Positions 2,513-32,935 of a stretch of DNA of 35,340 nucleotides are shown one piece after another. The position numbers were made by a program, and so were the translations under genes. The stretch's first letter is position 1. Every line of letters starts with the position of its first letter. The DNA lies in the NCBI GenBank assembly GCA_001275005.1, contig JWZX01002690.1, positions 1 to 35,340 on the forward strand. Direction: 5' to 3'. The notes below the pieces were generated by a model. The model saw only the letters and a program-made list of their open reading frames with translations, had not been told where the DNA came from and searched no databases. Source of the stretch: Chrysochromulina tobinii (lineage: Eukaryota).

Positions 2513-4357
2513 ATGAAGGTCCTGATCATATGGCTCCTTTTTCCTCTGTGCCGCACCGACACGACCATTGTCCACAAGCGCCACTGCTCTTTCGAGCACC
2601 GAACCAAGGTCCGGGATTGCACGCAGAACCGCAACCGGCACGATTGTGAGGCGTCACGCATGGGCAGCACACTGGACGTATTCCAAACGTGCTGGGACTG
2701 GGGACACAGCTGCCAGCCAGCCCGACGGATCTTGGCTGCAGGGCTGGACGGCAACATGACGCGGCAACGATTGGCATGGCAGATTCGGAGTCGGCTGCAG
2801 CAGTGCCCCCAGGATGCACCTGTGCGGACCCTAGAGGCGAAGTTTGCACAGGAGGAGTGCTCGTCGTCAATGGAGCTGTGTGTCCGACGGCGCTACACAC
2901 GGCCCGCGCCGGTACAGCCAACATGGGGCAAGTATGGCTACCACGGCAAGCATTTTTCCAAATGGCTCGACGACTTTGAGCTCAGGCATCCGATGACGCC
3001 TCCGGTAGCGAAGACCAAGGGGTGGGAAGAGCCATACAAGGGGCTGACAGCAGCTCTCACTCCGGATGGGGCGGTGCTGCAAGGCGCCGAGGCCGACGAG
3101 GCGCTCTCCGCTCTGCACTTGAGTCGTCCCGTCGCCTACGGTCTCGTCATGATGTCGAGCCACCATCAAAAGGACCTGCAGTACAAGCAGTCGGCGGCGA
3201 TGCTCCGGTGGAGTGCGTCCGCCCTCGCGCACGTGAGCCAGCGGCCAGGGGGGCGTGGCCTCGGGCTGGCCGCACTGCTGCTGGTACACAACAACGCGGC
3301 CTGGAGTGAGAAGGAGCTGATCCGCATGCTGCAGTACTATGAGCTCGAAGGTCCACGCCAGATGCTCCGAATGCTCGTGCGTCCGACGGTGAACATGGGC
3401 TACCTGTGCGGTGAGCTCTCCATCCTCGCCCATGTACTCCTCTCCCATCTACTCTCATGATTCGTCCATCTACCGCACAGGTGAGCTCTCCATCCTCGCC
3501 GCAACGGCCTCGATGTGGGCGCACTTCCCTTGGGTGCTGTACAACAGTGGCCCCGACGCGGTCCTGACCCCGTACGGTGCGACCGCCTTCGCGAATTGGA
3601 TGGAGTGGGTCGAGCCCGGCTGCGCGAACACGACGGCATTCCTCGGCGGCCGCTTTCAGGTGTGATGACGACTGATTGTATGCTGATGGGCCTCCCTCAC
3701 TGCATGCTGACCGCGAACACGACGGCATTCCTCGGCGGCCGCGTTCAGACACCCGAGCGCATCATGCAGGTCGTCCCTCACTTCGCCATGGACGTCTTCT
3801 TCTTTTGGCCTGCCAAGTTCCTCGAGGCCGGCCAGAAGGCGGCTGGCCAAGCCAATAAGGCGCCCCAGCCCATGGCGAGCTCGGGCAGGCGCTCGCCGTT
3901 GATCACGCCGTGGTTGAATGCGACACGATGGTGCTTGATGGGCTGGGCTCCTGACGAGCCACGGCCCGAGTCGACGACCTATGGGCCGTTCAACAATGAG
4001 ACGGACGAGATCTTCGCCCTTCCGGAGTATCTGCTCCACGAGATGCAGTTCAGATTCGATCTCGACTACCGCATACTGCCCGGCGGGACTGGATGGGGGA
4101 TCGCAGACTCAGCCCGGGTCCCCAAACCAGGGCAGCCCGGAAAGTTCGAGAACCGGCACGCTAAGGCCATTCCGTTCCCGAAGCAGACGTGTGCCAACGG
4201 CATCTGCGATGACTGGCACGGGATCTGGCATAGCCACTTTTGGCAGTCGGTTGAGGAATGGATGCACAACCTGAACCGCACGTTTGGAGGCGACGTGCCA
4301 TGGACGCACATGTTCGATGTCGACAAGACTCATCGCACGTACGATATTGTTACCTAG
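2513..4357 (+). CDS. Secreted hypothetical protein, 3 exons (2513-3410, 3481-3659, 3749-4357; 561 aa)
   Basis: Signal-peptide-like start MKVLIIWLLFPLC. Three overlapping ORFs join into one frame after removing two GT-AG introns (spliced length 1686 nt). Confidence 0.7.
3411..3480 (+). other. GT-AG intron (70 nt) whose first 20 nt equal the first 20 nt of the next exon
   Basis: gtgagctctccatcctcgcc occurs at 3411 and 3481. The intron ends in cgcacag and its removal restores the frame. Confidence 0.8.
3660..3748 (+). other. GT-AG intron (89 nt) whose last 37 nt copy the end of the upstream exon
   Basis: cgcgaacacgacggcattcctcggcggccgc(t/g)ttcag occurs at 3623-3659 and 3712-3748. Removal gives GGRFQ|TPERIM. 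Confidence 0.8.
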
Positions 4358-4576: not shown

Positions 4577-6376
4577 TTAGACCAGCTCGGTGCTGCCACC
4601 CGTCTCGGCTTGCCTATCGATCTGCTCATCCCGCGCCTTCTTCGCGCCAAGGATGCACCTCGAGGCAGCGTAGAAGACGAGCGCGAGCACGACCGTAAAC
4701 GTAGATCCCGAAAGGATGGCCATCGCCTTGGCAGCCGTCGAGTACGGCGTCGCGAGGGACGCCACGTACGTCGGGGCGACGGCATGGGCGACCGCCTCGA
4801 CGACGAGGAGAGAGGAGAGTCGGAGGTAATGCACGTAGAGGTCGCGGATGCAAATCAGCCATGTCCAGCCGACAAAGAAGGCGCCGCCGTGGATGAGCAA
4901 GAACATCCCGGTGGCCTTGCGGCTCGCGGAGGTCTCATGCCTCTTGCCAGCGATCACGATCAAGTACGAGACGAAGAGCGTCAGGCTGAGGGTCACGACG
5001 AGGTTCTGGCCGAGGACACGTAAGGTGGGCGCCTGACTGAGCGAGAGGAAGAGTGCCGTGGCCACGTCCGACCACGCGCAACCGACGACGAATGCGAGCG
5101 CCTCCTGGACTGCGTCCGCGTACACCAACGCATACGAGTATGCAACTCCCTGCTGCTCGAGGCGCCTGGACACCAGGCTGGATAAGAGGGTCGCAACATA
5201 AGTGATCGCCAGCGTGTACAGCACCTGTATTTCCACCTTGAGGTACCGCCCACTATCTCTAGGCAAAGCGAGGTACTCGGCCATGTACAAGGTCTTGTAC
5301 CACAAGACCATGGTGACGACCGAGGCGACGCACTTAACCATCGCAATAAAGTCCATGATGAACTCCTCACAGGCTGACGAGCGCTGTACTGAGCGCGAGG
5401 TCCTCGTCGGCGCTGAGGCTGTCGGACTTGACGGTGGGGCGGCCGATTGTGGGGAGGCCGAGGTGCCCAAGATGGCGCTCGTTGTACCCTCTGGGCGTCG
5501 AGGGGGCGGAGTATCCGAGGTGCCCAAGATGGCGCTCGTTGTACCCTCTGGCCGTCGAGGAGGCGGAGTATCGTACGCAGCTCGAGAATGCGCATGAGCA
5601 TCCAGGGCGAGGCCATTATTGGCCGCGCTGGTGTGGGCGCTCCTCGCGCCATCGAGCTCGTTGATCTCGGCGTCGACCTCGGCGTTGATCTCGGTCCTCG
5701 CGGCGAAGGGCTCGATCATCACGATGACGAGCCCGAGCGCGAGCGCCGTCGTGAGCGTGAACGCCACTGCAAAGGCAGCATCGAAGGCGATGCAGTCACC
5801 ACTTGTGGTGAGGCTGCCGATCTCGCAGATGGCCGGGTAGAAGAGCTTCATCTCCACGACGGCCTGTGAGAGGGCGTTCGCCCACGCCCAGCCGACGATG
5901 AAGTTGCAAATGAGGTGGTTGCCGAACATGAGCTTGGCAAAGCCGGTCACTGGGATGGCGATGAGCGCAAAGACAGCCTGGTCCCACGCTGAGCCGACCG
6001 GGTTGCACGGGGCCGGGTGGTATGGAGTGCCACAAAAGGGTACCGGCCGCAAGCCGAGGATGTCGGCAGCGATCAGATCGTAGATCGTGCGAGAGAGGCT
6101 GAACATGGCCGCGCCCTCAAGGAAGAGAGCGACAGCCTTGACCGTGCTAAAGGGCAGAGCCGTGCAGCATATGAGGATCGGAGGCTCGTCGCTCTTGCCG
6201 TACCGAACCCGCAACTTGCTCATCTTCGTGTCATCGGGGCGCGGCGTACGATACGCGAGTGGGTGCGATAAGCGAGTGAGCTTCACGCTGGAAGCATCGC
6301 CGTAACAATCTCGGAGCGTCTCCATGCGTTCACGGAGCATGCGTTGTTTGAACGCGCGCAACTCATTGCTGGCCAT
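4577..6376 (-). CDS. Multi-pass membrane protein of unknown function (599 aa)
   Basis: Long ATG ORF with two clusters of hydrophobic segments separated by a Pro/Ser-rich loop. Confidence 0.7.
   Translation of the reverse strand: MASNELRAFKQRMLRERMETLRDCYGDASSVKLTRLSHPLAYRTPRPDDTKMSKLRVRYGKSDEPPILICCTALPFSTVKAVALFLEGAAMFSLSRTIYDLIAADILGLRPVPFCGTPYHPAPCNPVGSAWDQAVFALIAIPVTGFAKLMFGNHLICNFIVGWAWANALSQAVVEMKLFYPAICEIGSLTTSGDCIAFDAAFAVAFTLTTALALGLVIVMIEPFAARTEINAEVDAEINELDGARSAHTSAANNGLALDAHAHSRAAYDTPPPRRPEGTTSAILGTSDTPPPRRPEGTTSAILGTSASPQSAAPPSSPTASAPTRTSRSVQRSSACEEFIMDFIAMVKCVASVVTMVLWYKTLYMAEYLALPRDSGRYLKVEIQVLYTLAITYVATLLSSLVSRRLEQQGVAYSYALVYADAVQEALAFVVGCAWSDVATALFLSLSQAPTLRVLGQNLVVTLSLTLFVSYLIVIAGKRHETSASRKATGMFLLIHGGAFFVGWTWLICIRDLYVHYLRLSSLLVVEAVAHAVAPTYVASLATPYSTAAKAMAILSGSTFTVVLALVFYAASRCILGAKKARDEQIDRQAETGGSTELV
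5459..5572 (-). repeat. 57-bp in-frame tandem duplication (DTPPPRRPEGTTSAILGTS x2)
   Basis: Two near-identical units at 5459-5515 and 5516-5572. Confidence 0.9.
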
Positions 6377-6588
6377 GTCAACGGGGCTCGCTCGGCTCGC
6401 TGTTGACCGCGAGTCGGTTGGGTACCGGGTAGTGCAACATGATCACGCCATTTGCTCTTCACATCAATTAGACGCACCAAATTAGGTAACGAAACGGACC
6501 CACACACTCACGTTGGACCCAAGGATCTGACAATCGCCAGCTCTTCTAAACTCAAATCTGGCTTTTGGAGATACCCGGTACCTCCTCC

Positions 6589-7845
6589 ATGCTAATGCTT
6601 TGGTGGCACGCGGCCAGCGCCCTCTCCTTGCGGCCAGCCAGCCGAGCCTCACAAATTCACGCTACTGTGGGTACAGCTGAGATCCTTGGACGTAGTCCGG
6701 CCACTTCCGGCGACGTACTACTGTTGGGTCTAGCATTGCAGCAGCTGCAGGCGTCGCCGCTGTCGGTGGCTGAGCTTACAGAATCGATCGATCAAGCTGG
6801 GACCAACGCGTCGCCATCGGCTCTCGAGACGATCGCCGATTTCCTCAAGCGTCAGCGGCGCTCGCAGCTGCTCGTCGATTTGCTCAAGTCGGATCGTGCC
6901 GCCTACATTGAGACAGCGACCTTCTTGCCCATCCCGCGACGTGAGCTGCCCAACCGGCAAGACATACCGCTGCGTGCGTGCGACACAGCGCCGCGACGCG
7001 CCGACGCACTCCCCGAGACTGATCTGATCGGCGGTCTCACTGCCGACGGGTTGGTGCCCGATAGCCCCTTAGCGGACAAGGCGATGGGCGAAAACGGGCT
7101 CGAGGCCGCAATCCTTGAATTGACTCGCGACATCTACTCAAAGGAAACCGGCGTCTCGCGCAGTGACGAGAAGGGCATCCGTGGGCTAATCGACGAGATG
7201 CGCCGCTTTATGCTCTCGGCGCGGGGCGTCTCACCCGCGGCGCAGCAGGAGGTGCTCATTCGGACTCTTCGCGTACTGATGACGCCCGTGCTGCCGCCCT
7301 TCTATCGCATCTTCATGGGCGGCAAGGTGCCGACTTTTGACCCCGAGGACGAGCGCATTGGCGCCGACCCACAGTGGCTCGCCGACGGTTTCAGCTGGGT
7401 GCGCTCCAAGCTGCCCGTGGGCAAGCAGTGGCTCGAGCCGGGCCGGCAGCTCGGTCCATGGTTTTACGCCCCGACGCTGACTGCGGTGGTGGCTCCGTAT
7501 GCGTTCGGCTTCCTCGTTGGCCCCGCGTCTCTCAACCGACGCTCAGACGGCGAGTTGGGGGGGCTCGTGGTGGAGAAGTGCAAATTCCTGCAGGAGTCCA
7601 ATTGCAAGGGCATGTGCCTCAACTCGTGCAAGCTGCCCGCCCAGAATCTGTTTGCTGAGCTCGGGCTGCCCTTGCGAGTGAGTCCCAATTTTGCGACGCA
7701 CGAATGCCAATGGAGCTTTGGCGAGTTGGCGCCACCTCCAACGGAAGACCCGACCTGGCCAAAGGGCTGCGTCGTAGGCTGCACTTCGCGCGAGGCGATG
7801 AGGCAACTCAATGGTGGAGGTCCGACGGTGCGGGCATGCGAGTGA
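6589..7845 (+). CDS. Beta-carotene isomerase D27-like (DUF4033) protein, probably plastid-targeted
   Basis: C-terminal motif VVEKCKFLQESNCKGMCLNSCKLPAQ...LGLPLRVSPNF..HECQWSFG..PP..EDP is typical of D27/DUF4033. The N-terminus MLMLWWHAASALSLRP resembles a signal plus transit peptide. First ATG is at 6589. Confidence 0.85.
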   Translation: MLMLWWHAASALSLRPASRASQIHATVGTAEILGRSPATSGDVLLLGLALQQLQASPLSVAELTESIDQAGTNASPSALETIADFLKRQRRSQLLVDLLKSDRAAYIETATFLPIPRRELPNRQDIPLRACDTAPRRADALPETDLIGGLTADGLVPDSPLADKAMGENGLEAAILELTRDIYSKETGVSRSDEKGIRGLIDEMRRFMLSARGVSPAAQQEVLIRTLRVLMTPVLPPFYRIFMGGKVPTFDPEDERIGADPQWLADGFSWVRSKLPVGKQWLEPGRQLGPWFYAPTLTAVVAPYAFGFLVGPASLNRRSDGELGGLVVEKCKFLQESNCKGMCLNSCKLPAQNLFAELGLPLRVSPNFATHECQWSFGELAPPPTEDPTWPKGCVVGCTSREAMRQLNGGGPTVRACE

Positions 7846-9676: not shown

Positions 9677-12600
9677 CTAGACGGCGACGGCGGCCTTGCG
9701 CGCGCGCACAAACTCCTCGAACTTTGCGCACGTGGCGAGAAAGTCGCCCGCGTGCGCCTCAGTATCGGCGATCACGGCGTCCCCGTCGACAATCTTGATG
9801 CGCATGTCGAGGTCGACGCGCGTGCATGCGGGGGTGATGGCCTTGGCCGCCGCGGCGGCTTCATATGCGGCGCGCTCCTCGGCAATCAGAGCCTCGACGT
9901 CCTGCACGAGCGCCACCAGCCATCAGAAAAAATCATCATTCTCAATTGGGGATCATCAGCGGCAATGAGCGCACCTGCTCGAGGAGGGACTTGTGATGAG
10001 GGACACACTCACGTGCAAGCAGAGGCAATCAGCACACCTGCTCGAGCATCGCCACCCACGCGTCTCCGGAGAGAGGCTTGCCAGTGAGCCGCTCGACCAG
10101 CCCTAAGAAAGGTTCCGAATTCCCGGGCCTCCAGTAGGCCTCGCGCAGCGTCGGGCCGATCTTGGGGTTGTCGACGAGTGCGCCGTCGCGTTCCGACAAA
10201 AAGGCGCGCGTCTGGTGAACGGCCATCTCGGCGAGCACGTACCCGTGGTAATAGCAGCTCGCTTCGTCAGAGAGCAGGTGGGGCACTGAGAGCAGCGGCC
10301 GGCCGCCGAGCCCGCCCTGGATCTCCTTCTCTACCTTATCGGCGAGGGCGAGCACCGACTGCGCGCTCAGCACGTCCTCCGGCATCTCATACCTGATGGG
10401 AGGAGGCAATCAAAGGGCCATCAGCCGCAATCAGCGGTCCATAGAAGCACTATCTGCAAGTACAGTGCCTTCTCAAAGTAGGGCCATCAGAGGTCATCAG
10501 AGGTCATCAGAGGTCATCAGAGGTCATCAGAGGCACTATCCTGCAAGTACAGTGCCTTCTCGAAGTAGGGCCATCAGAGGTCATCAGAGGTCATCAGAGG
10601 CACTATCTGCTCGTACAGTGCCTTCTCAAAGTAGGGCCATCAGAGGTCATCAGAGGTCATCAGAGGTCATCAGAGGTCATCAGAGGCACTATCTGCTCGT
10701 ACAGTGCCTTCTCAAAGTAGGGCCATCAAAGGTCATCAGAGGTCATCAGAGGTCATCAGAGGTCATCAGAGGCACTATCTGCTCGTACAGTGCCTTCTCA
10801 AAGTAGGGCACAGCGATCATGCCGCGCAGCGTGAGCACTTCGTACGGGTGCTTGGCGCGAACGTCCTCCTCGTGCAACTCGAAGGGGAGGGGCACGCCCT
10901 CGCGGCTGACGGCGTACCTGATGAGGGACGTCATCACACATGATGAGGCAGGCCATCAGAGCTCAGTAGGATGAGGCAGGCCATCAGGGCTGATGAGGCA
11001 GGCCATCAGAGCTCAGTAGGATGAGGATGGCGTACCCGGCGAGGGACGTCATCAGAGGCAATCAGAGGCCATCCACGCACTTGCACCGCCACGCCGCGTC
11101 GCCCACGAGGGAGTCGAGGAACATGGACTGCAGCTCGGCGTATGCGACCGAGGTGGGGGCGCGCTCTTGCGAGAAGAGAGGTGAGCGCTGACGGATATTG
11201 GCAAAGTGCGCCGCGTGCCCGGCCTCGTGCATCAGGGTCGTCAGGGCGGTGTGGCCGGAGCCGATCGCCGAAGGGTCCGCAAGGGAGGTAAAGTGGGTCA
11301 CTGTGGGCTGCCACGATCCGTCCGCGCGCACCTGTGGGGAAGGAGGTGAGGCGTCGTGGTGAGCACTTGCATGCTGGCTCACTGCGGGCTGCCTCGATCC
11401 GTCAGCGCGCACCCACGCAGGCTGCGGCCAGTGGCAGAAGCCGTTGGAGTACTTGCCCTTACGATCGAGCAGGTCGAGCGACATGCTCGCGCCTTCGTAG
11501 GAAATGCCGAGCGCCGAGAAGGAGCGTCCCCACTGTTCGATGGCCTTCTCGAAGGGGAAGTACGGATCGAGCTTCTTGGTGATGTCACCTGTGGGGACAG
11601 AGAGGGGGCGCCGTGGTGAGCACTCGCTTGCTGGGCGACGCAGGGAAAAGTACGGATTGAGCTTCTTGGTGGTCACCCGCCATCATGTACGCCGAGTTCC
11701 ACGGCTCCAGCGCCATCTCGCCCTTCTCCTTCGCGAGCCGTGCGCGCGCTGCCTGCATGAGAGGGCGCGTGCCCTTCTCGAGGGTATCCAGGATTTCGAA
11801 GAGGGCCGCCTTTCCAAACCCCTCGGCCTGCGTGACCTTGTAGTCGTAGTAGTCCACGTACCCGAGGGACTTAGCCATGCGATTGCGCGCCTGGACGAGA
11901 TCGACGCACCCGCTCAGAGGCAATCAAACGCACTCAAAATCAATCAGAGGCACTCCGATGCGCGCCTTGACGAGATCGACGAACCCGTTCGCCGTTACGA
12001 AGTCGCCGATGGTGCGCACGCCATCGTAGCATGCCTTGCGTGTACCTGATGAGGAAGGCAATCAGAGGCCATCAGAGGCAATCAGATGGTGCGCACGCCA
12101 TTGTAGCATGCCTTGGTGCATACCCTCCGCGGAATCGACCCTGATGGGGAAAGGTAAGCAGAGGCAACTAGCCTTGGCGCGCACCTTCCACCGGCTCGAC
12201 CCGCATCTTGTTGCGCAGACCCACGGACGAGAGCTCGACGAAGGAGCCGTCGATGGTCGCGCCGAGTTTCATCTTGTTGCGGGCGGCCTCGAGCGTCCCC
12301 TCGATCTTCATGCACTGCTCGCGCAGCACGAGCCCTTCAGGGTTCTCCATTATGTAACAGCCGAATGTGCGCTCGAACATCTTCAGTGTCTTGCGCTCGT
12401 CGTCCGTCAGGTCCGACGAGGCGAGGTACTCGCGCGTCTGCGCGAGCTTCTCCTTGGACGCGAGGAACGCCTGTGGCGGCGAGACTCGAGCGCGGCCGAC
12501 TCGCATGAGACTCGCATGCGACGCGTGCGCGCCAGTGTGGGTGAGTCTGAGCCGTACGACCTCCATCTCAGCCTTGGTGCGCGTGAGCTCCGGGACGGAG

Positions 12601-12890
12601 TACGCTTCACCGCCGAGCGCCATCTTCGTCCCCCAGAACTGAAGCTCGAAGGACTTGTGGACCTTCTCGTACTCGGTGTTGATCGTTTCAATGAAGGTGG
12701 TCGCGGCCGACATGGCAGAGGGGCTGTAAGACGGAGAATCGAGGCGCAGCGTGAGAGAGCGCAGCAACGGACGGCTGAGTTTGCGAAAGCTGCGCCACGA
12801 TTCGAACCGTGCCGAATACCGTGCTCTCTTCGAGGACATGCTCGCTGCGGAGAGGATCGCGGGAAAGACGCTTGACGCGTACAAGCGCAT
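9677..12890 (-). CDS. M3-family zinc metallopeptidase (oligopeptidase-like), 9 exons
   Basis: HEAGH (HExxH) plus downstream AELQSMFLD, and motifs DLLDRKGKYSNGFCHW and YYHGYVLAEM. Exons: 12713 (or 12890)-12561, 12470-12185, 12045-11966, 11890-11677, 11588-11413, 11331-11081, 10917-10789, 10392-10038, 9901-9677. This gives 622 aa from ATG 12713; the upstream ATG at 12890 would add 59 aa, possibly a targeting peptide. Confidence 0.88.
9902..10037 (-). other. M3 peptidase intron 8 (136 nt) with an internal CAG|GT junction at 9975/9974
   Basis: CTCGAGCAG|GTGTGC at 10037, a second CTCGAGCAG|GTGCGC at 9974, and acceptor GTGCAG|GAC at 9902. Confidence 0.75.
10393..10788 (-). repeat. M3 peptidase intron 7 (396 nt): array of exon-end/donor copies interleaved with (CATCAGAGGT)n
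   Basis: On the + strand, the unit gcactatctgc(tc/aa)gtacagtgccttctcaaagtagggc occurs 5 times, separated by 5, 3, 5 and 5 copies of the 10-mer. Splicing CT|GTACGA...ATCAG|G gives EKALYEMPED. Confidence 0.85.
10918..11080 (-). other. M3 peptidase intron 6 (163 nt), built of CTGATGGCC/CCTCATC repeats
   Basis: AA|GTGCGT...CCTCATCAG|GTAC. Splicing gives DAAWRCKYAVSR. Confidence 0.75.
11332..11412 (-). other. M3 peptidase intron 5 (81 nt, in frame): ~38-nt copy of the next exon plus acceptor cassette
   Basis: The ORF shows duplicated peptide VRADGSRQPAVS...VRADGSWQPTVT. Boundaries are TGG|GTGCGC and CCCCACAG|GTG. Confidence 0.8.
11589..11676 (-). other. M3 peptidase intron 4 (88 nt): ~33-nt copy of the next exon plus acceptor cassette
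   Basis: The intron starts GTGACCACCAAGAAGCTCAATCCGTACTT and the exon starts GTGACATCACCAAGAAGCTCGATCCGTACTT. The intron ends CCCCACAG. Confidence 0.8.
11891..11965 (-). other. M3 peptidase intron 3 (75 nt), GC-AG, flanked by duplicated exon sequence
   Basis: GTCGATCTCGTCAAG|GCGCGCA ... GTCGATCTCGTCCAG|GCGCGCA. The intron contains an in-frame stop, and splicing gives GFVDLVKARNRMAK. Confidence 0.7.
12046..12184 (-). other. M3 peptidase intron 2 (139 nt), compound
   Basis: GAAG|GTGCGC...CCTCATCAG|GTACAC. It contains an internal acceptor-like site (12141), a donor-like site (12123) and a copy of the next exon. Confidence 0.75.
12471..12560 (-). other. M3 peptidase intron 1 (90 nt, in frame), no obvious exon duplication
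   Basis: GAG|GTCGTA...CCACAG|GCG. Splicing gives KAEMEAFLASK. Confidence 0.6.
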
Positions 12891-13256: not shown

Positions 13257-15398
13257 TCAGGCAGTGCCGAGCGTCGTGCCGAGCGGCACGCCCCCGTAGC
13301 TCGTCTGGCGAGGGCTCGAGGGTGCGAGGTACTCGGCAAACGCCGAGCCGCCGGTCGAATCCGCACCCGCCGCGCCGATGCGGGCTCGGTCCGCTGACGG
13401 AAGGCTCTCGGCAAGGGCGAGTCCCGCACGGGAACGGAGCGATGCGAGCGCTGCGCCCGGCACGTACATCTTGGCCGTCGCCTCGGCGTCCGCGCCGTGG
13501 GTGGTGTTGTCAAAGTTGAGCCGCGTGGCCACGGGTGGTTTCGTCTCGTGTTTCGTCAATGTGGCGGCGGCGGCGGTGGCGGCCGCCGGTGTCGCGCCCG
13601 CACTGTCCGCAGCCTCGGTGGATGAGCCTGTGGGAGTGTTCACCTTGGCGCCGGTGGGCGTGAGAGAGCTCATGTACGAGGACGGTGGCGGCGGCGGCAG
13701 CGACGAGTGCGAGGCGACAGCGGCGGCGACGGCGGCGGCGGAGGAGGAGCTCGACGATAGAGAGGAAGAGGAGGACGAGGAGGTGGACGAGGTGTAGGGC
13801 GAGGTGTAGGACGAGGGCACAGGCAGCTTAGACGGAGGCGAGCTGGTCGCGCCACCCATGCCCGCCATCGGAGCCCTGGACGGGAGCATCGGGCGGAAGC
13901 TAGGCGGGCGGGCGTGTAATGATCCGAGCAAGGGGCGCCCGCCCGCCTGCGCCTCATTGAGCTCGTGGTTGAGGAACTGGATGACTTCCTGATTGGAGCG
14001 CAGGAGGGTATGCGCCTCTGTGAGCTGCGCCTTGCATGCGCTCGTGCGCTCCTCGGCGCGGTCCTTGTCCGCACGCAGCTCGGCCGCGGCCGCGCGAAGC
14101 TCAGCCATCGCCTTGGTCGCCACGTCGAGCTCCGTCTGCTTGGCGGCGCAAAGCTCACCCTGCTGCAGAAGCTGCTGCGCCTTGAGCTTCAGCTTGGCCT
14201 TTAGCTCGCGCGAGTCACCCTGGAGCTTGGCGATGATGCTATTCCCCTTGGTGATCTCCTGCGCCGAGAGCCGCAACTGCTCTTGCAGCCGCGAGTGACC
14301 CTCCTTGTACATCGCGAGGGAATCCTCAAGTTGCCTCTTGGACTCGGCCGCAGCCTCACGAGCACAGCCCATCTGAGCGAGGAGCGTCTCCTTGTCGGAG
14401 GCGGCCTGGCTCGCCGCGGCGAGCTCGACGTCGCGCGCGCTCAGCGCCTTCTCGAGCGCGTGCACCCGCGCGCTCAGCCGCGCATTCTCCTCGCGCAGCC
14501 CCGTCGCCTCCTGACGAAGCAGCCCCACCTCCTGCTCCGCCCCCTGAAGCCTGCTCGCCGTCTCGCGTTGGCGCAGCGAGAGCTCGTGCGTGCTGCTCGT
14601 GAGCTCGCCCACGCGCGCGCGCGCCTCGGCCTCCGAGCGGCGCAGCTCGCGGAGCTCCGCCTCGCTCCGATCGAGAAGCCTCTGCCGTGCCTCCTCCGAC
14701 GCCGACGCCTGCTCCTGCTGCGCCGCCACGGCCGCCTCCCTGCTGGCGTTGAGCAGCCCTGCGTGCCGCACGTCACGCTCGTGCAGCTCGCGCGCGTGCT
14801 CGTCGCCGATGTTGCGAAGCTGCTCGGCCTGCGAGGCCGCGCGCTCCGCCGTCGCCTGCAGCTGCGCCGTACGCTCGCGCAGCTCTTCGCTCGTTGTGAG
14901 CAGCTGCGCCTTGTACTCAGTCACGCGGCCCGCGAGATAGCGCTTGATGGCCGCGTCATTGCCAGCGACGAAGCGCAGTGCGAGGTGCGCAAGCTGCCGG
15001 AATGGGTTCGTCTCGGTGATCGTCAGCATCGGCTGGCCACTCTGCGTCGAGAGCACCGCGACAAAGCGCGGGTGGTCCTCAGCGGCGCTGCTCTGGCACT
15101 GGCGCAGCAGCTCGATCACCTTGGAGGGGAAGGTGAGAAAGTCGACGAGGATATTCTGCTCCGTCTTGAGTGAGTGGAAGTCATCCTCCGAGATCTCGAG
15201 CGTGTACAGCAGGAAGGCATCGCTCTCATCCGTTAGCTGCACCCGCAGCACTTTTTGGTTGCGAGGCTGCCCGGTGCTGTGCGTGATCGCGACCGTGAGC
15301 GAGCTCGAGCGGTCCTCGCGGTCGGCGCTCTTTAGGATGACCGGGACTGCCCCGTGGAAGATGTCCTCGTGCTCCTGCCACTCGCAGGTTGCGGGCAT
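13257..15398 (-). CDS. SAS6: Spindle assembly abnormal protein 6 (centriole/basal body cartwheel protein)
   Basis: Head-domain motifs LRVQLTDESDAFLLYTLEISEDDFHSLKTEQNILVDF..FP and ETNPFRQLAHLAL, followed by a long coiled coil and a Ser/Pro-rich tail. First ATG is at 15398. Confidence 0.92.
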   Translation of the reverse strand: MPATCEWQEHEDIFHGAVPVILKSADREDRSSSLTVAITHSTGQPRNQKVLRVQLTDESDAFLLYTLEISEDDFHSLKTEQNILVDFLTFPSKVIELLRQCQSSAAEDHPRFVAVLSTQSGQPMLTITETNPFRQLAHLALRFVAGNDAAIKRYLAGRVTEYKAQLLTTSEELRERTAQLQATAERAASQAEQLRNIGDEHARELHERDVRHAGLLNASREAAVAAQQEQASASEEARQRLLDRSEAELRELRRSEAEARARVGELTSSTHELSLRQRETASRLQGAEQEVGLLRQEATGLREENARLSARVHALEKALSARDVELAAASQAASDKETLLAQMGCAREAAAESKRQLEDSLAMYKEGHSRLQEQLRLSAQEITKGNSIIAKLQGDSRELKAKLKLKAQQLLQQGELCAAKQTELDVATKAMAELRAAAAELRADKDRAEERTSACKAQLTEAHTLLRSNQEVIQFLNHELNEAQAGGRPLLGSLHARPPSFRPMLPSRAPMAGMGGATSSPPSKLPVPSSYTSPYTSSTSSSSSSSLSSSSSSAAAVAAAVASHSSLPPPPPSSYMSSLTPTGAKVNTPTGSSTEAADSAGATPAAATAAAATLTKHETKPPVATRLNFDNTTHGADAEATAKMYVPGAALASLRSRAGLALAESLPSADRARIGAAGADSTGGSAFAEYLAPSSPRQTSYGGVPLGTTLGTA

Positions 15399-15458
15399 TG
15401 TCGCGGCGAGCGCGCGTCGCTTTCGCGCGCCTTTCCTTCCCCTATGCAAGAGTTATGC

Positions 15459-15676: not shown

Positions 15677-16717
15677 CTAGTCCTTTTCAAACTCAATGCG
15701 AAAGAACTTCACTGTGATGAAGTTGGACAGCCTGCCGATGGCGTTGCCAAAGAGGGGGATGCCAGTTAACAAGTAAACGGATACAAAGAGCAGCTCGGCA
15801 TCGTCTACTGAGCCCGGCGGAGTTTGGCCACACGAGGAGATCGAAAAAAATGCAAAGTATAACGCGTCCACCCAGTTCCATTGATTGTACAGGATCTCGA
15901 AGAGGGTTCCCAACAAGAGAATGAAGAATACCACGAGGAATGGCGCCACGACGTCGTACAGGAACCTGAGTGCCTGCTTGAAGCTTGATTCGTCTGAGTC
16001 CAGCGCCTTCGTGGAGAGCTCCTTAGCCACCTGCAAACATGAGATGCTTGGCGACGGGGTAAGAGCGCAACGGGCGAATCGCAAACGTGTAGCATGCATC
16101 AGCGCGCGTTCGCGGCACAGTGACAAAGGTACCTCTGTCGCCTTGTTGCTCAAGCGCGCCATGAAGATAGCGAGGGCCGAAGTGATGAACAAGATCATCA
16201 CAAGGCCGTGGAGAATCGTAAAAAGCTTCCACAACTCGTTGCGCTCTGTGAATAAGCCATAGCCGACATGGAAGCCCATGAGCACAGAATAGAACAAGCC
16301 GGCCGCCCAAGTTGGCTCCTTGCACGCCGCCGGGTTGCGAAAGTTCGTGAGCGCACCGGGTGGTTGCGGACAAAAGTCGGCAAGAGCAAAGTACTTGTAG
16401 ATGGATGTCGTGATGAAGAGCCAAGCGACGAAGGCCGCGAGCCAGATTCGCCAAGCCAAGTCTTGGCGTCGCTGGCGCTCGCGCTCAACCACGTGTCGCA
16501 GACCCACGCGAAGCGGAGATTTATACGGGGCTGGAGGCATGTGGGGGGCAACAAGTGGTGTGCTCTCTGTCGGCGGCAATGTTGCTCCTGACCATGTGGC
16601 GACCGGAGCTGCAGGTGCCTCCGCCTGCAAGGCAGCTGCTGTAACGGCTTCTGGAATGAGAGCGGGAGCCTCCATATCCAGAGGAGCTGATGCCACGGCT
16701 GATGCTGAGGCCTGCAT
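15677..16717 (-). CDS. Two-pore-domain (4TM/2P) potassium-channel-like protein; probable in-frame intron at 16132-16031
   Basis: TM-P-TM pattern occurs twice, with pore helices GLFYSVLMGFHVGYG and WNWVDALYFAFFSISSCG and the motif YLLTGIPLFG. The intron is GAG|GTACCT...TTGCAG|GTG (102 nt). Confidence 0.75.
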   Translation of the reverse strand: MQASASAVASAPLDMEAPALIPEAVTAAALQAEAPAAPVATWSGATLPPTESTPLVAPHMPPAPYKSPLRVGLRHVVERERQRRQDLAWRIWLAAFVAWLFITTSIYKYFALADFCPQPPGALTNFRNPAACKEPTWAAGLFYSVLMGFHVGYGLFTERNELWKLFTILHGLVMILFITSALAIFMARLSNKATEVPLSLCRERALMHATRLRFARCALTPSPSISCLQVAKELSTKALDSDESSFKQALRFLYDVVAPFLVVFFILLLGTLFEILYNQWNWVDALYFAFFSISSCGQTPPGSVDDAELLFVSVYLLTGIPLFGNAIGRLSNFITVKFFRIEFEKD

Positions 16718-17267
16718 GTCCTTCCCCAGGGCAGCCCCCGCGCACCACGTGCTCCTGGGTGCCCGTGGATGCGCGAGCGCAGCGCAAGGCTAAATTAGGG
16801 AAGTGGTGTCGGTTTCTGGTTTCGGGGTTGGGTTGTGTACGTGCCTTTGCGATGTTACAACTGTGCGGAGTAAACTGTAATTAGTGTTGTAATCCGTTTT
16901 TTCATTTTCTGCTTGCGCGCCGGCGCGGGGGCCGAGATGGCGGGACGGACGGAGCCGACTCCAGCGCGCACAGCGGGACGCCGCGAGGAACCATCGTCGA
17001 ACTCCATCGTCGGCCTTTGATGGCGACCCCGGGCTTGCCGCGGGCTATTGAGTGCCCAGCCTCTGCGGGCCTCTGGGCCCTCGGACAGCACGGTCACGCT
17101 GTTCGTTTTTACACCGTCCGAACACGCTGGGTCGCTGTCCCACCTTAAAAGCTCTCGAAATGACCGATCAGCCGGCAGCGCGGTTCCACATAACCGAACC
17201 GACATTCGATGTGCCTCTCGGCTACCTTCGGCAGCCACAGCCCTACGACGGGCGCCTGGCGCATGTG

Positions 17268-19457: not shown

Positions 19458-20940
19458 TTACCACAGAGCCGGAGCATTGTCCCGCACCACGGCGAGCGGC
19501 GCGACAGCTGCGCCGGCGACGCCCCCCTGGACGACCCCATTCGCCTGAGAGCTCTCTTCGCCAGAGAGCGCATACTCGAGCTCTATGCGCCAAGCGGCAG
19601 GGAAGCGCGCGTCCTTGTGGGCACCGTCCACGTCCTCCTTGTACAGCGCGCCGCCATAAGGGAGCGGCTTGAGCATGCGTGCCAGGAAGCCAGTGTGCAG
19701 CGTCGCCCAGCCCAGCCTCTCCTCCGTCAGAAGGCCATTATTACTCAGGCGCAGCTCAAAGTCTCCGCGGAGGAGCAACCCGTCGCCAGGCAGCTCGAAG
19801 CGCACGGCCGGCTGGAAGGGCGCGCAGCGCACGGGGCCGCACGTGCAGATGGACGAGCGCAGCGTCTGGATGCCATCCGCGGTGGGAGACGCCGTCGTGA
19901 GCGCGAGCAGCTCCAATCTCAGATACCTGTGGGGAGAGAGGCGATGGCGCCGTGGTGAGCACTTGCATGCACCGACGGATCCAATCTCAGATACCATGGA
20001 TTGAGATCCAATCTCAAATCAGATTGAGATCCAATCTCAGATACCATGGATTGAGCAGCGAGTCGGCGTCCGCGCGCGGCGCGCCACTTGAGGCGAAGTA
20101 GGCGCCCGGCGCCGAGGAGAGTGTGACCGCCTTGAGCACGACCGTGGCGCCCTCGAGCAGCTGCGCGCGCCTCTCGACCCCCTCGCAGCGCAGCAACTGC
20201 TCGTACATGCGCACGCAACGCACTTGTGATGGCTGGTTGATGGCGTCGAGGTCCGTCGTGCGTGCGCTGCGGAAGAAGTGGATGGCTGCGTCGGCCGACG
20301 GGCACTCGGCGTGCCCGATGCGGAGCAGGAACGCGCACACCATCACCCCTGTGCGCCCCTTGCCAGCCTTGCAATGCACGGCTAGCACATTCGCCTGGTC
20401 ACCCTCCATGAACGCGTACGCACGATCGCAAAAGGCATCGAGCGCGCGCAGCGCGGGTGCGTGGTGATCGGCGAACGGGTAGCGCATGACGCGCACTGCA
20501 CCCGGCCAATCGGTGTCCAGGTAATCGCGCTCGTCGCACAAGTTCACCATCGCGTAGCGGCCGCCGTGTTGGCCATCCATGAAAGACCGCACATCCGAGA
20601 GCGGGTTGCGATACCACGACTCGAATGAGCTGCTCGGCAGCCCCAGCGCGATGACGCGCGGCACAATGTACGTCAGGTCGAGGTCGAAGGTGTCCGTCTG
20701 CGTGCGCCTCTTGGAGCCGGATACCAAGTGCCGCGCGACTCGGAATGGCACATCGGTGACGCCGGAGGCAACTGCGGTGAGGCTCTGCGTCCACGTGGCA
20801 TCCTTGTTGGAGCCCCTCGTCTCGAGTGCCTCGACCTCGAGTGACTCGATGCGTCGCTGCATCGGTTTAATCGGTGCGGCCGCGGCTGCAGCGCTGATTG
20901 GGATAAAAGAGACCGCAGCGCCGTCCTTGTGCTCCGCCAT
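19458..20940 (-). CDS. PTEN: PTEN-like phosphoinositide phosphatase with C2 domain, 2 exons (20940-20045, 19926-19458; 454 aa)
   Basis: Catalytic HCKAGKGRTG, plus LVS..KRR...FDLDLTYI.PRVIA.G.P, YRNP, FADHHAP and PSQ.R motifs. C-terminal C2-like region GDF...LHTGF...KEDVD.AHKD.RF. Confidence 0.9.
19927..20044 (-). other. PTEN intron (118 nt): patchwork copies of the exon junction plus acceptor cassette
   Basis: TG|GTATCTGAGATTGGA...CCCCACAG|GTATCTGAGATTGGA. Splicing gives LLNPWYLRLELL. Confidence 0.8.
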
Positions 20941-27394: not shown

Positions 27395-29107
27395 CTAATA
27401 CCGCGGCATTTCCCACGAGGTTTCCCCGGTCATGGTGTGAAAGAAGTAGACCTCGCCCGTATCTTCGTCCTCGTGCGCCTCCCAGCCGGGTGGCAACCTG
27501 GCCTTAGGCGGCGGCTCCTCGATCGCAAACGCCGTATCGATCTCGGCCCCCCAGTTACCTGATTGGGCGGGGAGCGTGGAGAGTGGCAAGTCGGGCGGCG
27601 TCGGCGCCGCGTCCATCTCCTTGGTGAAGCCGGGGGGCTTGTCCCAGGTCGACTCTCCCGTCACGGTGTTATACCAATAGGGGTAGCCGCTCTGGTCGTC
27701 GACCATCTGCTTCCAGCCGGTACTCGGGTCGACGCCCAGGCTAGCGCTGCCACGAGCGCCCGCACCGGCGCTGCCACGAGCGCCGGCGCTGGCACTGGCG
27801 CTGGCGCTGGTGCTGAGGTTGGGGCTGACGCACTCATCGGCGCTCGCGCCATCATCGGCGCCATCGCCCGAGAGAGCGCCCGAGAGAGCTGGCGATTCAT
27901 CCGTCTCTTCGTCCTCGAACTTGCCATATTTGGACGCGGCCCACTTTGCGGACAGCGTCTTACTGCGCTCGAGCTTGAGCATCTGGATCCCAGCACCCAG
28001 CTTCCCAGCACCCAGTTTGTCCTTCTTCGGGTTGCCTGTTTTGGGACCCCGGCTTGCGAAAGCGTTCATCGGCTGTTTGTCGGCGCGGCCGGCGCGCGGG
28101 CGTTGCCTGCGGCGACGGAGGCAGTAAGCGACCAAGCCGCAGCAGCCGCACACTGCGATCAGCATCACGGCGATCAGCGTGAGCTGGAGCCTGGCTGCGT
28201 CGCCCCTCTCTCTGCTGGCTTCAAGTGGCTGCGCGGGCGGTGCAGGCACGAGCTGCACGGCCGGCTCGCTGACGGCCTCGACCTCAGTGCCGAGGTGCAC
28301 GGCGCGTGCCGTCGAGATCACGCCACATCCGATGCGCCCGCCCGCTCTATTATGGAGCACAATCACACGGCCCTGGATCGAAGAGACGCCGGTGCCGCCG
28401 CTCAGTGTGAAGCCGCCCACCGTCGCGTCGACGCGAGCGACGGTGCCGCCGCTCGGCAGATTGTACGTGAGGTTCACCCACGGGTCATCCCCAGTCGCCG
28501 TGAGCAGATGCCCTCCCACCTCGGCTGCGCTGGCACAGCTGGAGCCGGTGTGAACATGCCAGCCGCCCGAACTGCTCACGCCGGTCACGACCCCTTCTAT
28601 GTGCACAGCAGTCGCGAGGGAGTGGACCATCAGGGTACCGCCCTCCGAGCAGCAGGGAGCGCCTGGATAGGGTCCCAAGCTGGCCATGCCATCGGACACG
28701 AGGGGCCTGAGGCGAAAGAGGACGAGAAACGCGGCCGCGGCCGACGGCACAGAGACGACCACGTGCACCGTTGTCAACATCGTCTCCGTGTCCGTATCAT
28801 CGCCGTGGTGGTGGTGGTGACGCGCGAGCGACACGACGTCCGCGTCCACCGCGCACGCAGCCGCCAGACGTGCACGCAAGACGTTGTCGGATATGTCGGC
28901 GTCGTGGGCGCTCGTGTTAGTGCCCAAGGTGAGCGTAGTCGTCACCCAGTGCGGCACATCCGGCGGCGGCAGCGTGGGCGGCCGAGGCGGCATGGGCGAG
29001 GGTGGCGTCGGCTCGCAGGTTAGGTTATTGCTGCTGGCGCAGCTCTGGCCATAGGCGTAGCCTAGGCAGAGGAGCTGAGCGATGGAAATGGCTTTACGCA
29101 ATCGCAT
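27395..29107 (-). CDS. Type I membrane protein: signal peptide, Cu-SOD-like domain, TM helix, two cytosolic WW domains (570 aa)
   Basis: Signal MRLRKAISIAQLLCLGYAYG; GWHVHTGSSC..GGH...SIQGRVIVLH...RIGCGVI; TM LTLIAVMLIAVCGCCGLVAYCL followed by RRRR; WW motifs GWKQ..D..SGYPYWYN..TGESTWDKP and LPPGWE...D..TG.VYFF...TGETSWEMP. Confidence 0.8.
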   Translation of the reverse strand: MRLRKAISIAQLLCLGYAYGQSCASSNNLTCEPTPPSPMPPRPPTLPPPDVPHWVTTTLTLGTNTSAHDADISDNVLRARLAAACAVDADVVSLARHHHHHGDDTDTETMLTTVHVVVSVPSAAAAFLVLFRLRPLVSDGMASLGPYPGAPCCSEGGTLMVHSLATAVHIEGVVTGVSSSGGWHVHTGSSCASAAEVGGHLLTATGDDPWVNLTYNLPSGGTVARVDATVGGFTLSGGTGVSSIQGRVIVLHNRAGGRIGCGVISTARAVHLGTEVEAVSEPAVQLVPAPPAQPLEASRERGDAARLQLTLIAVMLIAVCGCCGLVAYCLRRRRQRPRAGRADKQPMNAFASRGPKTGNPKKDKLGAGKLGAGIQMLKLERSKTLSAKWAASKYGKFEDEETDESPALSGALSGDGADDGASADECVSPNLSTSASASASAGARGSAGAGARGSASLGVDPSTGWKQMVDDQSGYPYWYNTVTGESTWDKPPGFTKEMDAAPTPPDLPLSTLPAQSGNWGAEIDTAFAIEEPPPKARLPPGWEAHEDEDTGEVYFFHTMTGETSWEMPRY

Positions 29108-29746
29108 AGAATTCCTTTCACAGCCGCAATGATCCCTTTCATCAAGGGCAGTCAGGCCGCCCAATTTGTGGGGAAACAGAAAGGCCTGATTCCCATTCCT
29201 CTCGAAAACCTGCGCACACACGTCCTGATCCCTACTATTGTACATGTGCAGTATACGCATGCTATACCCCTATACGCCGGCGGGGGCTCAGAGTGAGTGA
29301 GTTTTATCTGTATTCGCTATCGACACGCGAATCACCAGGGAGCAGGGTGCCCCCTCGACGTGGCATGGTGCCGTGTGTCCGTGATGCGTGCAATGGATGC
29401 GTGAACGCTGAACGGCGGTGGCGCCCCCCTCAGGCTCCCGGTGTGAGCTTCAAAACGAGAGCGCGTTGCTGATGTTGTATGCGATTTCGTCACTTTTCTC
29501 TTTTTAGGTTGCAACCTGACTAACCTATACTGTATGGGTATCAACCGCCTACTGTTCACCTATCACAGTACTTGGATAACCCAAGAAAGGTCAACAGTCG
29601 TGATAAGACCCTCGCCTGGGAGGCGTGGAAGTACCAAGTATGGATTCAGATTCATAACAAAGGATCCATGACTGATTGTCGAAGCGTTGGCCATATGCCC
29701 CCCCCGAAGGCTCCACCCCTCCCTCTGGCCGTCGGGTAGCTCGGGG

Positions 29747-32700
29747 CTATCTCAGTGCGCGCGTGATCGAGAGCGCAATGAACACGGCCCACAGCACCAC
29801 GAAGAAGAGAGCGCTCAGCCACCTGGAGACCGGCGGACCGCCCAGTTCGGCGCCGAGCAGACGGCGGCGCGCAATGAGTGTGCCGAAGCACAGGCTTGCC
29901 ACGGCCAAGAAGATCTGAATTGAGTAAGCGAGGTCACCCGCGGGCACCACGAAGCTGACGGCCATCTGGGGCGTGTACCACGGCTCAGAGGAGTACCTGT
30001 CGCGCCACTCGGCCTCATGCTCCAGGCCATAGGAGGCCCAGTAGATGGCGGCGATCATCCAGGGCAGCCCGAGGCCGAGGTAGATGATGACGCTATTCGA
30101 GCCAGTGATGTTGGTAATGCACGCGTCCGCGGTAGGCTCGGTGGCGGCGGCGATGCGCGACGCAAAAGTGTCGGGCAGCGAGGAACCCATCGCGACAAAG
30201 GTCATGGCTGTCACCGATTTCGAGATGCCCAAGCAGCAGCCCATGTGGCTAGCGAGGTCGCCGACGAGCGCCGTGAGCAATCCAATGAGCACGAGCGTCA
30301 CGAGGAAGCACGACCAGCCACCTGACCACTCGGGCGGCGGCACAATGGCGCAGATGAGCTTCCAGGGCAGCGACAACAGCCACATCGCCATGGATCCCGG
30401 CCCAACTTCCGAGGGCAGCTGCACCGCCTCCTGGAACTGGCCTAGGTACGAGCCATCGCCGTGCTCGTGCTTCGCCTTGGGCTGCGGCGAGCTAAAGTCG
30501 AGCAACTGCACAAGCTCGTCCACGCGCGCGACACGCTCCGAGTCGGAATGGACGTGCACGACGGAGAAGATGGATGCTCGGCGCAGGCGCATGTTGCCGT
30601 CGGTGACGAACCGCGTCGCCTTCTCGCCCTTCTGCCCTGCGGCCGACGTGAGCACCACCTGGAAGTCATCGAAGCGGTGGTATGCACCTGTGTCTATGAG
30701 CTCCACCTCAATTGTCTTCGACACGACGCCTTCCTCAAAGACCATTCGGCCCGATCTGCCGACATAACCCTGGCCCGCGATCGAGGTGCCGTCGCGCGTC
30801 GCCCATTGGCATGCAATCGTCCCTTCACAGCCATGCGTGCGCAGCACTGATAACGTCACGCGCTGCGCTGTCTCACAGACATCGACCTCGCGTGAGTCTA
30901 AGTGTAACTCGCCCGGCCCGTCGTGGTCTTGAATGGTGACGTCGCACGTGGTCGTGGCGCCCAGACGGCAATGCTTCGGACAGAAGAGCTCGACGAAAAA
31001 GTGCTCATCGTTCTCCTCATCGTCGTCGTCGATGATCTTGACGCTGATCGTCTGGTGCGTGACGCCCGGTGCGAACACGATGAGGCCTTCAGCCTGAACA
31101 CAGTCGAGCTCAGCGCAACGCTCAGAAATAGGGGGCACTCAAAGAAACCACTCAGGGACGCACATCAGCAGAGAGAGACGCGCTGAGGGACGCTCCCAGA
31201 GACCAGGGAGGCATTCAAGGACGCACTCCGAAGAGCACTTAGGGACCATCAGTGGCCGTCGGCGCACATGCTCGAAGTCGACTCCGTCGGTGGCGGTGCC
31301 GCTCTTGGTACAGTACTCGACTGAGCATGCTCTGGACTTGTCGCCGTTGCGTACGATCGCGAGTGTCACGCTCCCTTGCCCCTCTCGGCAGACGCGCTTC
31401 GCCTGCGCCCACTGCACGCGGGTCTCGCCGCGCGCGTCCTCAACCGCGTTGCCCTCCCGCTCGAGGATGGTTGCGCGCAGAAGGCCAGCTTCGTCAAGCG
31501 CCTTGTTGCCGAGAGCGGCGTTCATCCCAGCCTTTCGGTAGTAGGCTTGCGACTGCGGCGGCAGCAGCATCGAGGCGACGGCGGCGAGCTGCTCGTCGCC
31601 CGAGAGCGTTTCGATGGACTTGAGTGCAAGCACGCGCGAGATGTCAGTCTTTGTGATCTGGCGCCCATCCTTGCCGTAGCCGATGGCCGCGGCCGCCTCA
31701 GCACTCTCAGCGTCATGAGCGGCGAAGACGGACGCCTCGGCGTCGGCCACATCTGCACGGTATGCCACGTACACGAGGAGGGGGAACATGACGAACGTGG
31801 TGACACCCTCCCACACATCGATGACATCGGGCGTGATGTACTCGAGTATGATGATGAGCCACACGTATCCAAAGATCGAGGCGACCCCGGTAATGTAGAA
31901 GACTGGAAGTGCCTTGATGGCGGTCTGGCCGCCGTCTGGGATGGCCGTGATGCACACAGCCGAGATGATGAGCATGTTGAAGGCAGCCGAGCCCACGATC
32001 GTCGACGGGCCGAGCTCGCCCGCGTAGAAGCCCGAGCTCACAATCTCGATGATCGAGAGCAGGATCTCCGGCGCGGAGGAGCCGAGCGCCATCAGCGTGA
32101 GGTTGGCGACCGTCCCATTCCACACGGTGACCGTATACCTTCGCACCTCGCCTGAGGGCAGCTCGATCGTCCTCGTCGTCTCCGTGGACGTGATTTGCTC
32201 GATGCCGGCCATGAAAACGTCCGCCGCGATCGCAATGCCCAGAAAGGTCCAGCAGAGCAGAGCCATGAAGAGGAGCGTGTTGCGCCCTGTGCGCGCGGGC
32301 CCATACAGTATCCAGCCGTCGGAGCAGTGCTCACCGCCGAGCTCCGGGTCCACGCGCGGATCGTTGAACCACTCTTCAAGGCTGTCGAATGCCGGCTCGA
32401 CGGCGCCCATGTCGAAGATTCCGATCTCGTTGGCGAGCGCGCCCAGCAGCAGCCCGAGCAGCAGCAGCAGCAGGCCGCAGCACGCGGAGGGAAAGATCGT
32501 GATCGTGGCCATCGGGGGCGTCTCCGGCCCCGACGGCGTCCCATCCGCACTCTCGCTCTTGAGCGCAGCGGCGGTAGGTGCCGCCTTGACGGACGGCGCC
32601 ACCTTGGCGGTCGGCGCCGCCTTGGCTGGCGACGATGGCTTCGATAGCGGAGGCATGGCCGCCGCCGTCGTGGCCGGCTGCATCGCCTTTGAAGAAGTGC

Positions 32701-32935
32701 CCGACGGCGCGCTGCAGGCCGTGGTCATGTACCGTGCGTATGGTGACTGCGTATCGCGTTCACAAGCGCCCTGGGTGGCAGCATGGGGCACGTTGGCACC
32801 AGCAGCCCATGATCCGGATTCAGTGCGCTGCTTATCGAGGAGCAAATCCTCGTCATCGGGGGTGATCGGGCTTCTTGACGGCTGCTGATGCGAAGCGGAG
32901 CTGCCCGACGTCCGCGTAGATCCCCAGCGCAGCAT
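29747..32935 (-). CDS. NCX: Na+/Ca2+ exchanger (SLC8/NCX family) copy A, 2 exons (32935-31268, 31093-29747; 1004 aa)
   Basis: Alpha-1 repeat VWNGTVANLTLMALGSSAPEILLS..GPSTIVGSAAFN, two Calx-beta domains, and alpha-2 repeat GSSLPDTFAS..GSN. The 174-nt intron CAT|GTGCGC...TTCAG|GCT restores the frame. Confidence 0.92.

Follow-up and report, generated by a model that had tools for sequence, protein, structure and literature searches.

Minisatellites that straddle an exon-intron boundary have been described in the human genes F7 (a 37-bp VNTR of intron 7), LMNB2 (100-bp unit) and PDGF (81-bp unit) by Borensztajn et al. 2006 (PMC1557585). According to that paper, mutational work on F7 showed that the identical downstream pseudo-sites are functional and lose to the most upstream site, and studies cited in it report that splicing at the next two pseudo-sites occurs in the human genes 6-16 and CBS. 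Minisatellite-like duplications of exon-intron boundaries are also described, under the name 'mirages', in a study of amphioxus (PMC3087553).

A splice-donor minisatellite is present in intron 8 of an M3-family metallopeptidase gene in the 35,340-nucleotide stretch of Chrysochromulina tobinii DNA analysed here (contig JWZX01002690.1, positions 1 to 35,340; hereafter the window; Table 1). Its first copy spans the boundary, its units are of minisatellite size and arranged head to tail, identical donor copies follow downstream and the major mRNA product is spliced at the most upstream donor (4/4 RNA runs), as in F7, LMNB2 and PDGF, and its unit length and copy number lie in a similar range. The differences are that the host is a protist in which the neighbouring introns measure only 75-163 nt, that each unit carries 21 nt of exon versus 4 in F7, and that the unit is itself a nested repeat with a 10-mer satellite; pseudo-site competence and variation between alleles are known for the F7 type. 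With the mirages, the locus has in common tandem boundary copies, many of which keep their GT or AG, with no seen effect on normal splicing, and an occurrence as several cases per genome that are easily mis-assembled. It differs from them in belonging to another supergroup, in copies that would have been seeded at satellite microhomology, and in the presence of other introns with single long copies of the start of the next exon. In their 2013 Nature account of Emiliania huxleyi, Read and co-workers reportedly described tandem repeats of 10-11 bp in introns, with a strand bias, together with GC donors. In kind these resemble the sense-strand 10-mer intronic repeat and the GC-AG intron of the haptophyte-like peptidase gene, and that account is not known to describe captured splice donors. 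A search by title and abstract, in a literature composed mostly of papers outside subscription, returned no description of a donor array in haptophytes or other algae, and the portions available of PMC2784329, PMC4580454 and bioRxiv 2021.10.25.465678 make no mention of splice-site repeats.

Table 1. Positions of the donor array, its host gene, further introns and neighbouring genes in the window.
Feature	Position	Strand	Details
Candidate 89-nt intron	3660-3748	+	Recognised from sequence alone; 3' end repeats last 37 nt of upstream exon, 97% identical
D27-like carotene isomerase gene	6550-7842		Pfam
M3-family metallopeptidase CDS	9677..12890	-	10 exons, 9 introns (one GC-AG), 649 aa
Intron 9	10037-9902	-	Spare donor copy near 9983-9957
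Exon 9	10038..10392	-	First 7 nt equal first 7 nt of intron 8 at 6/7 positions
Intron 8	10393..10788	-	GT-AG, 396 nt here, 567 nt in L003/L020; RNA joint in X15, X17
Unit 5 and intron tail	10393..10484	-	Exact exon-end copy, variant donor 10463, degenerate 10-mers, acceptor ending CATCAG
Unit 4	10485..10571	-	87 bp (86 in L003/L020); one-mismatch exon-end copy, variant donor 10550, five 10-mers
Unit 3	10572..10637	-	66 bp; exact exon-end copy, perfect decoy donor 10616, three 10-mers
Unit 2	10638..10723	-	86 bp; exact exon-end copy, perfect decoy donor 10702, five 10-mers
Unit 1	10724..10809	-	86 bp; authentic exon end, donor 10788, five 10-mers; in-frame stop 10748-10746
Repeat template, last 21 nt of exon 8	10809-10789	-	Copied at 10723, 10637, 10571 and 10484
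Exon 8	10789..10917	-	129 nt; RNA contig pieces 10786-10917 in X15, X17
Intron 7	11080-10918	-	22/28/50-bp repeat; spare acceptor-like copy near 11026-11054
HEXXH zinc-binding motif	11215..11229	-	Exon 7, upstream of array; sequence, aligned with homologs
Intron 6	11412-11332	-	Starts with 30-38 nt copy of start of next exon
Intron 5	11676-11589	-	As intron 6
Intron 4	11965-11891	-	GC-AG; flanking direct repeat of ~29 nt (22 nt exon end, 7 nt next exon start)
Intron 3	12184-12046	-	Diverged 50-nt copy of spliced exon 3-exon 4 junction behind spare acceptor
SAS-6 gene	13260-15452		Pfam
Two-pore ion channel gene	15680-16789		Pfam
Candidate intron, dual-specificity phosphatase-like gene	20044-19927	-	Read from the bare sequence; CCCCACAG element, spare exon-end/donor copy at 19994, 15-nt copy of next exon start
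WW-domain protein gene	27398-29269		Pfam
Sodium/calcium exchanger gene	29750-33010		Pfam

The exons of the peptidase gene were delimited by putting RNA contig pieces into GT/GC-AG register, which gave an open frame of 649 aa; the start codon and the intron 1 donor are putative, being placed from the sequence and the size of the RNA contig. The translated product shares 88.6% amino acid identity over 642 aa, with no gaps, with P0001, 81.5% with a protein of Chrysochromulina rotalis, 72.1% with a protein of Prymnesium parvum and ~67% with two further eukaryotic homologs, one of which derives from a diatom. By themselves, these homologs point to a Chrysochromulina-like haptophyte as the likely host. 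The peptidase M3 domain (PF01432) is present in homologs at 67-89% identity, and a Pfam scan of two single-exon peptidase fragments taken alone gave no match at 1e-4. Across the exon 8-exon 9 junction the residues L-Y-E are continuous in homologs, with the PYFE motif found in 103/120 of them, and a reading of the array as a coding repeat was ruled out on these grounds. A ladder of in-frame micro-exons was likewise ruled out, as every unit contains stops and a frame shift. At one homologous peptidase locus (L019) a stop codon falls at the conserved tyrosine, just after the matched motif, and represents either a pseudogene or an assembly error.

On the minus strand, the 21-nt exon end followed by GTAC begins at 10809 (the authentic copy) and again at 10723, 10637, 10571 and 10484, with each 66-87 bp unit composed of this exon end, a GT donor and 3-5 10-mers. 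Unit 1 spans the exon-intron boundary, its first 21 nt belonging to exon 8 and the remaining 65 nt to the intron. Both Tandem Repeats Finder and a direct-repeat search recovered the same array, and the exon-end 21-mer has 4 occurrences in the window, versus no 21-mer occurring more than once in 20/20 window shuffles. The five exon-end/donor copies and the 10-mer runs of five, five, three and five given in the first-pass annotation were thereby reproduced, with the corrections that the exon-end copies are exact in 4/5 cases, the one at 10571 carrying a mismatch, that the first 10-mer of each spacer starts with G and that one 10-mer has a C-to-T change. Its separation of proximal copies that resemble the real donor from two distal variants was equally sound, GTACGAGCAG following the first three exon-end copies and GTACTTGCAG the last two, with the +5 G changed to T in the variant donor of unit 4 (10550). 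The perfect decoys match the authentic donor site from -21 to +15, and its count of at least two such decoys agrees with the donors identical to the authentic one in 2/4 intronic copies in the window and 4/6 in the contigs L003 and L020.

These two contigs came to light in a pattern scan of metagenome contigs that returned 35 loci, 25 of them peptidase homologs and 10 unrelated and left out. Both represent the same locus as the window, with identical flanks and an identical seven-copy array, in which units 1 and 2 occur twice as a 172-bp dimer (an A-B-A-B higher-order repeat, which accords with the stepwise amplification that the first-pass annotation had supposed). Before they were found, contig depths already indicated ~5 copies of the GAG-type unit. 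In DNA runs X1, X2, X4 and X10, 7/7 observed depth ratios (4.95, 5.24, 4.49, 4.69, 2.99, 1.92 and 1.61) lie nearer to the seven-copy prediction (5.18, 5.03, 5.03, 4.84, 3.0, 2.0 and 2.0) than to the five-copy prediction (3.09, 2.95, 2.95, 2.84, 2.0, 1.0 and 1.0), depth being an inexact gauge of copy number and the DNA runs and assemblies possibly deriving from one strain and one campaign. As L003 and L020 carry seven copies and the depth fits seven in 4/4 DNA runs, the array in the window has most likely lost one 172-bp dimer to assembly collapse. With identical flanks, assembly collapse is a likelier source of the five versus seven copies than allelism, although a genuine five-copy allele at the locus is possible; the variation in array length between alleles that had been proposed from the window is best explained in the same way, by collapse. 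The additional base that unit 4 has in the window relative to L003/L020, in the 10541 region, is probably an error in the consensus of the window's assembly.

The opposite error, in which an assembler would have over-expanded a single unit into an array, is hardly credible. Short-read assembly of tandem arrays is unreliable, and the window and L003/L020 differ both in copy number and in one unit-4 base; however, fixed diagnostic changes tell the units apart, the first and last copies each lie in a single-copy contig of their own that shows 0 differences (unit 5 and the tail being so covered in 4/4 DNA runs), the units have a depth of 4.5-5.2 x single copy in 4/4 DNA runs, and seven copies are present in two assemblies. 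Over-expansion, the outcome that the first-pass annotation had named as fatal to its own claim, thus fails against the seven copies of L003/L020 and a depth that fits seven.

The choice of donor was followed in RNA contigs, from which rare variants are lost, of 4 of 6 RNA runs (X13, X14, X15 and X17), possibly from one campaign. Sequencing runs X19-X21, in which almost none of the stretch is present, were left out of the analysis as a whole. A joint from 10389 to 10786 that skips 396 nucleotides and has the ends CT..AC was found at a depth of 18.1 in X15 and 16.8 in X17. The mRNA contigs of X13 and X14 leave an unlisted piece of 130 nt between the exons that flank intron 8, which admits the first donor only, because use of any decoy adds at least 86 nt. 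The mRNA contigs of 4/4 RNA runs are accordingly spliced from the most upstream donor, 10788, to the acceptor at 10393. The authentic junction and a decoy junction can each be told apart by six 31-mers of their own, and the X15 joint contig, which extends 30 nt into the exon, contains all six of the authentic ones. No decoy joint is among the two joints listed for intron 8 in the RNA contigs of X15 and X17.

Sequence that reads past the authentic donor is also represented in these contigs. A 36-nt contig in X15 runs through the authentic donor at a depth of 6 versus 18.1 for the spliced form (about 25%), and the repeat unit has an RNA depth of 24.6 in X15 and 25.7 in X17, or ~5 per copy over five copies. 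Across the unique intron tail (10406-10457) there is no RNA contig in X15 and X17, and only exon-level contigs account for the depth in X13 and X14. Assemblers may prune a low-depth tail beside a high-depth satellite. The combination of read-through and missing tail is ambiguous, as it fits unspliced precursor or DNA with a tail pruned by the assembler, and also minor decoy use of up to ~1/4. The first-pass annotation had offered two alternatives, namely that the most upstream site is strictly chosen or that unproductive isoforms are made. Use of the first donor stands in 4/4 RNA runs, but its strictness does not, given the read-through contigs and the loss of rare variants from contig assemblies, while the unproductive isoforms found no counterpart among the listed joints. 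The novelty that it implied was too high, since published accounts of human F7, LMNB2 and PDGF, and of amphioxus, already contain both the arrangement and the first-site rule.

We consider it probable, at roughly three chances in four, that splicing of the assembled mRNA proceeds from the most upstream donor and that the spare donors are silent by-products of slippage, forming an array that is tolerated. The match to the U1 consensus is 4/9 at the authentic donor and at all decoy donors and does not separate them, while the predicted accessibility is 0.38 each for the authentic donor and the two perfect decoys. As the predicted accessibility is equal, structure fails to explain the choice of donor, and since the authentic donor and the perfect decoys are also equal in sequence, position must decide. 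The first donor probably wins because it is transcribed first, on a co-transcriptional first-come basis, and because it would be the sole donor preceded by a complete exon, an argument made for human F7. Splicing at any of the four decoy donors retains the stop at 10748-10746, whereby the protein ends at residue 470 and ~190 residues are lost. Products with a premature stop of this type are targets of nonsense-mediated decay. Rare decoy products would be expected to take this route, and the array may be tolerated because they would be cleared by it. A protein search with exon 8 and its read-through tail for truncated products recovered none at E <= 1e-20, a cut-off too strict for 56 aa.

The same decoy products are central to a reading that we regard as unlikely, in which a minority of transcripts is spliced at the perfect copies and degraded, such that copy number tunes the output of the peptidase, as might be compared with human CBS and 6-16. 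It would draw on the identity of the decoys with the authentic site, on the splicing at the next two pseudo-sites that PMC1557585 cites for those two human genes, and on the X15 read-through and repeat-unit RNA in combination with an intron tail that lacks an RNA contig. Against it stand the absence of a decoy joint from the joints listed in X15 and X17, the use of the first donor in the mRNA contigs of all four RNA runs, and the X15 junction contig, which is continuous at the point where a decoy path would branch. Furthermore, the array bears no sign of conservation, with an intron at this position in 0/23 homologous loci of other organisms, of which 8 are clearly genomic, having introns elsewhere, while the closest may be transcripts.

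The read-through could alternatively reflect a retention switch, whereby a hairpin between exon end and satellite hides the donor, intron 8 often stays unspliced and each further copy adds a hairpin. This would be consistent with a predicted fold that places the donor within an 11-12 bp stem in each unit, with a fold z of -2.54 for the exon and first hairpin, with the ~25% read-through of the intron 8 donor in X15, and with intron 3, whose junction is also duplicated and whose read-through contig in X14 (12056-12212) has a depth of 16.7 versus 42.6 for the exon, which suggests that intron 3 is frequently retained. However, the folds of whole units are not more stable than those of shuffles (z = -0.04 and -0.44), the intron tail that a retained intron should contain is without an RNA contig, and the read-through may come from DNA in the RNA libraries. 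As such, a switch of this kind appears highly improbable, and silent spare donors behind a first donor that is used by virtue of its position remain our preferred reading.

The sequence of the units points to the manner in which such an array may have arisen. The 10-mer is abundant in the samples, the bins over the array summing to a depth of ~1e5 versus 38-49 for single copy, and 31/40 relaxed matches to it in the window lie in peptidase introns, all on the sense strand. Intron 8 may be pictured as having already held a stretch of the 10-mer satellite common in this organism. A variant of the satellite ending in TGGCCC would have made a short match with the exon at a point 21 nt before the donor, so that a first duplication took in the exon end. 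TGATG precedes every exon-end copy, and in the intron tail a satellite variant leads into GCCCT, the same start as that of the exon copy. Given this common entry through TGATG and the run of the tail variant into GCCCT, the duplication was likely seeded where exon and satellite share a microhomology of 5-7 nt, and the position of the unit break point at this short match between exon and 10-mer satellite suggests slippage. Unequal exchange or slippage would subsequently have amplified the unit stepwise. The distal pair shares one older change, the TTG form, that would have arisen once, and the proximal 172-bp A-B-A-B dimer would have doubled last; the GAG form is taken as ancestral because it matches the start of the next exon and the coding sequence of homologs. 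The 6/7 match between the first 7 nt of intron 8 and the start of exon 9 is weak evidence of the trace left by an insertion or a staggered repair. Short flanking repeats at introns are common by chance, according to PMC3443670.

The origin of intron 8 itself, as opposed to that of the donor array, is what a comparison with introners concerns. Introners, including a family of Chrysochromulina sp., are described with a 4-bp target-site duplication in PMC9860276, and PMC3443670 presents tandem duplication and break repair as routes of intron gain. Intron 8 resembles introners in being lineage-restricted and in its short flanking direct repeat, and the gene has common 3' ends, with CATCAG in introns 3, 7 and 8 and CCCCACAG in introns 5 and 6. 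In contrast to introners, the similarity among the peptidase introns is satellite-like or limited to the 3' half rather than extending from end to end, and the flanking repeats measure 7-38 nt here versus 3-9 bp for introners. Within the gene, the similarity of intron 8 to introns 3 and 7 is confined to the 10-mer and the CATCAG end.

Copies of splice junctions can also be observed in other introns of the peptidase gene. In 5/9 introns (3, 4, 5, 6 and 8), 25-50 nt of the end of a flanking exon is present as a copy that aligns with scores of 35-52, versus shuffle maxima of 21-25. Introns 7 and 9 contain shorter copies of acceptor or donor context, with scores of 28 and 27 that are without a matched null, and introns 1 and 2 of the peptidase gene contain no copy of a flanking exon end. 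The direct repeat that flanks intron 4 has the pattern that a tandem duplication would leave. Introns 5 and 6 look like insertions with an unusually long target-site duplication; their 3' ends share a 48-nt element, with CCCCACAG at its end, that is abundant in the DNA runs and likely belongs to a dispersed family, because its summed DNA depth is 70-90 x single copy. It is conceivable, if distinctly improbable, that introns are routinely born with 15-38 nt exon duplications beside two mobile 3'-end families and then undergo satellite-seeded growth, which would provide a genome-wide test of first-donor choice, and that at intron 8 a measurable fraction of transcripts is sent to decay by the perfect decoys, in keeping with copy number.

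Taken singly, the locus is an ordinary intronic minisatellite, in an arrangement already known from human and amphioxus genes. It constitutes a tidy test case, as the mRNA still uses the first donor although the acceptor is nearer to each of four to six spare ones, of which as many as four are perfect. Short introns are expected to favour the nearest pair of splice sites, and the use of the first donor in a lineage far from animals, and with short introns, runs against this expectation. The locus also calls for caution in annotation, given that short-read assemblies collapse such arrays and that gene predictors can choose the wrong donor. The duplication of junctions in 5/9 peptidase introns and in two candidate introns elsewhere in the window may bear on intron gain in haptophytes and represents the more promising lead.

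Two further tandem repeats in the window, at 1335-1604 (45-bp unit) and 5458-5571 (57-bp unit), are of in-frame length and lie in long open frames without Pfam hits. Most of the neighbouring genes consist of long uninterrupted frames, versus the nine introns of the peptidase gene.
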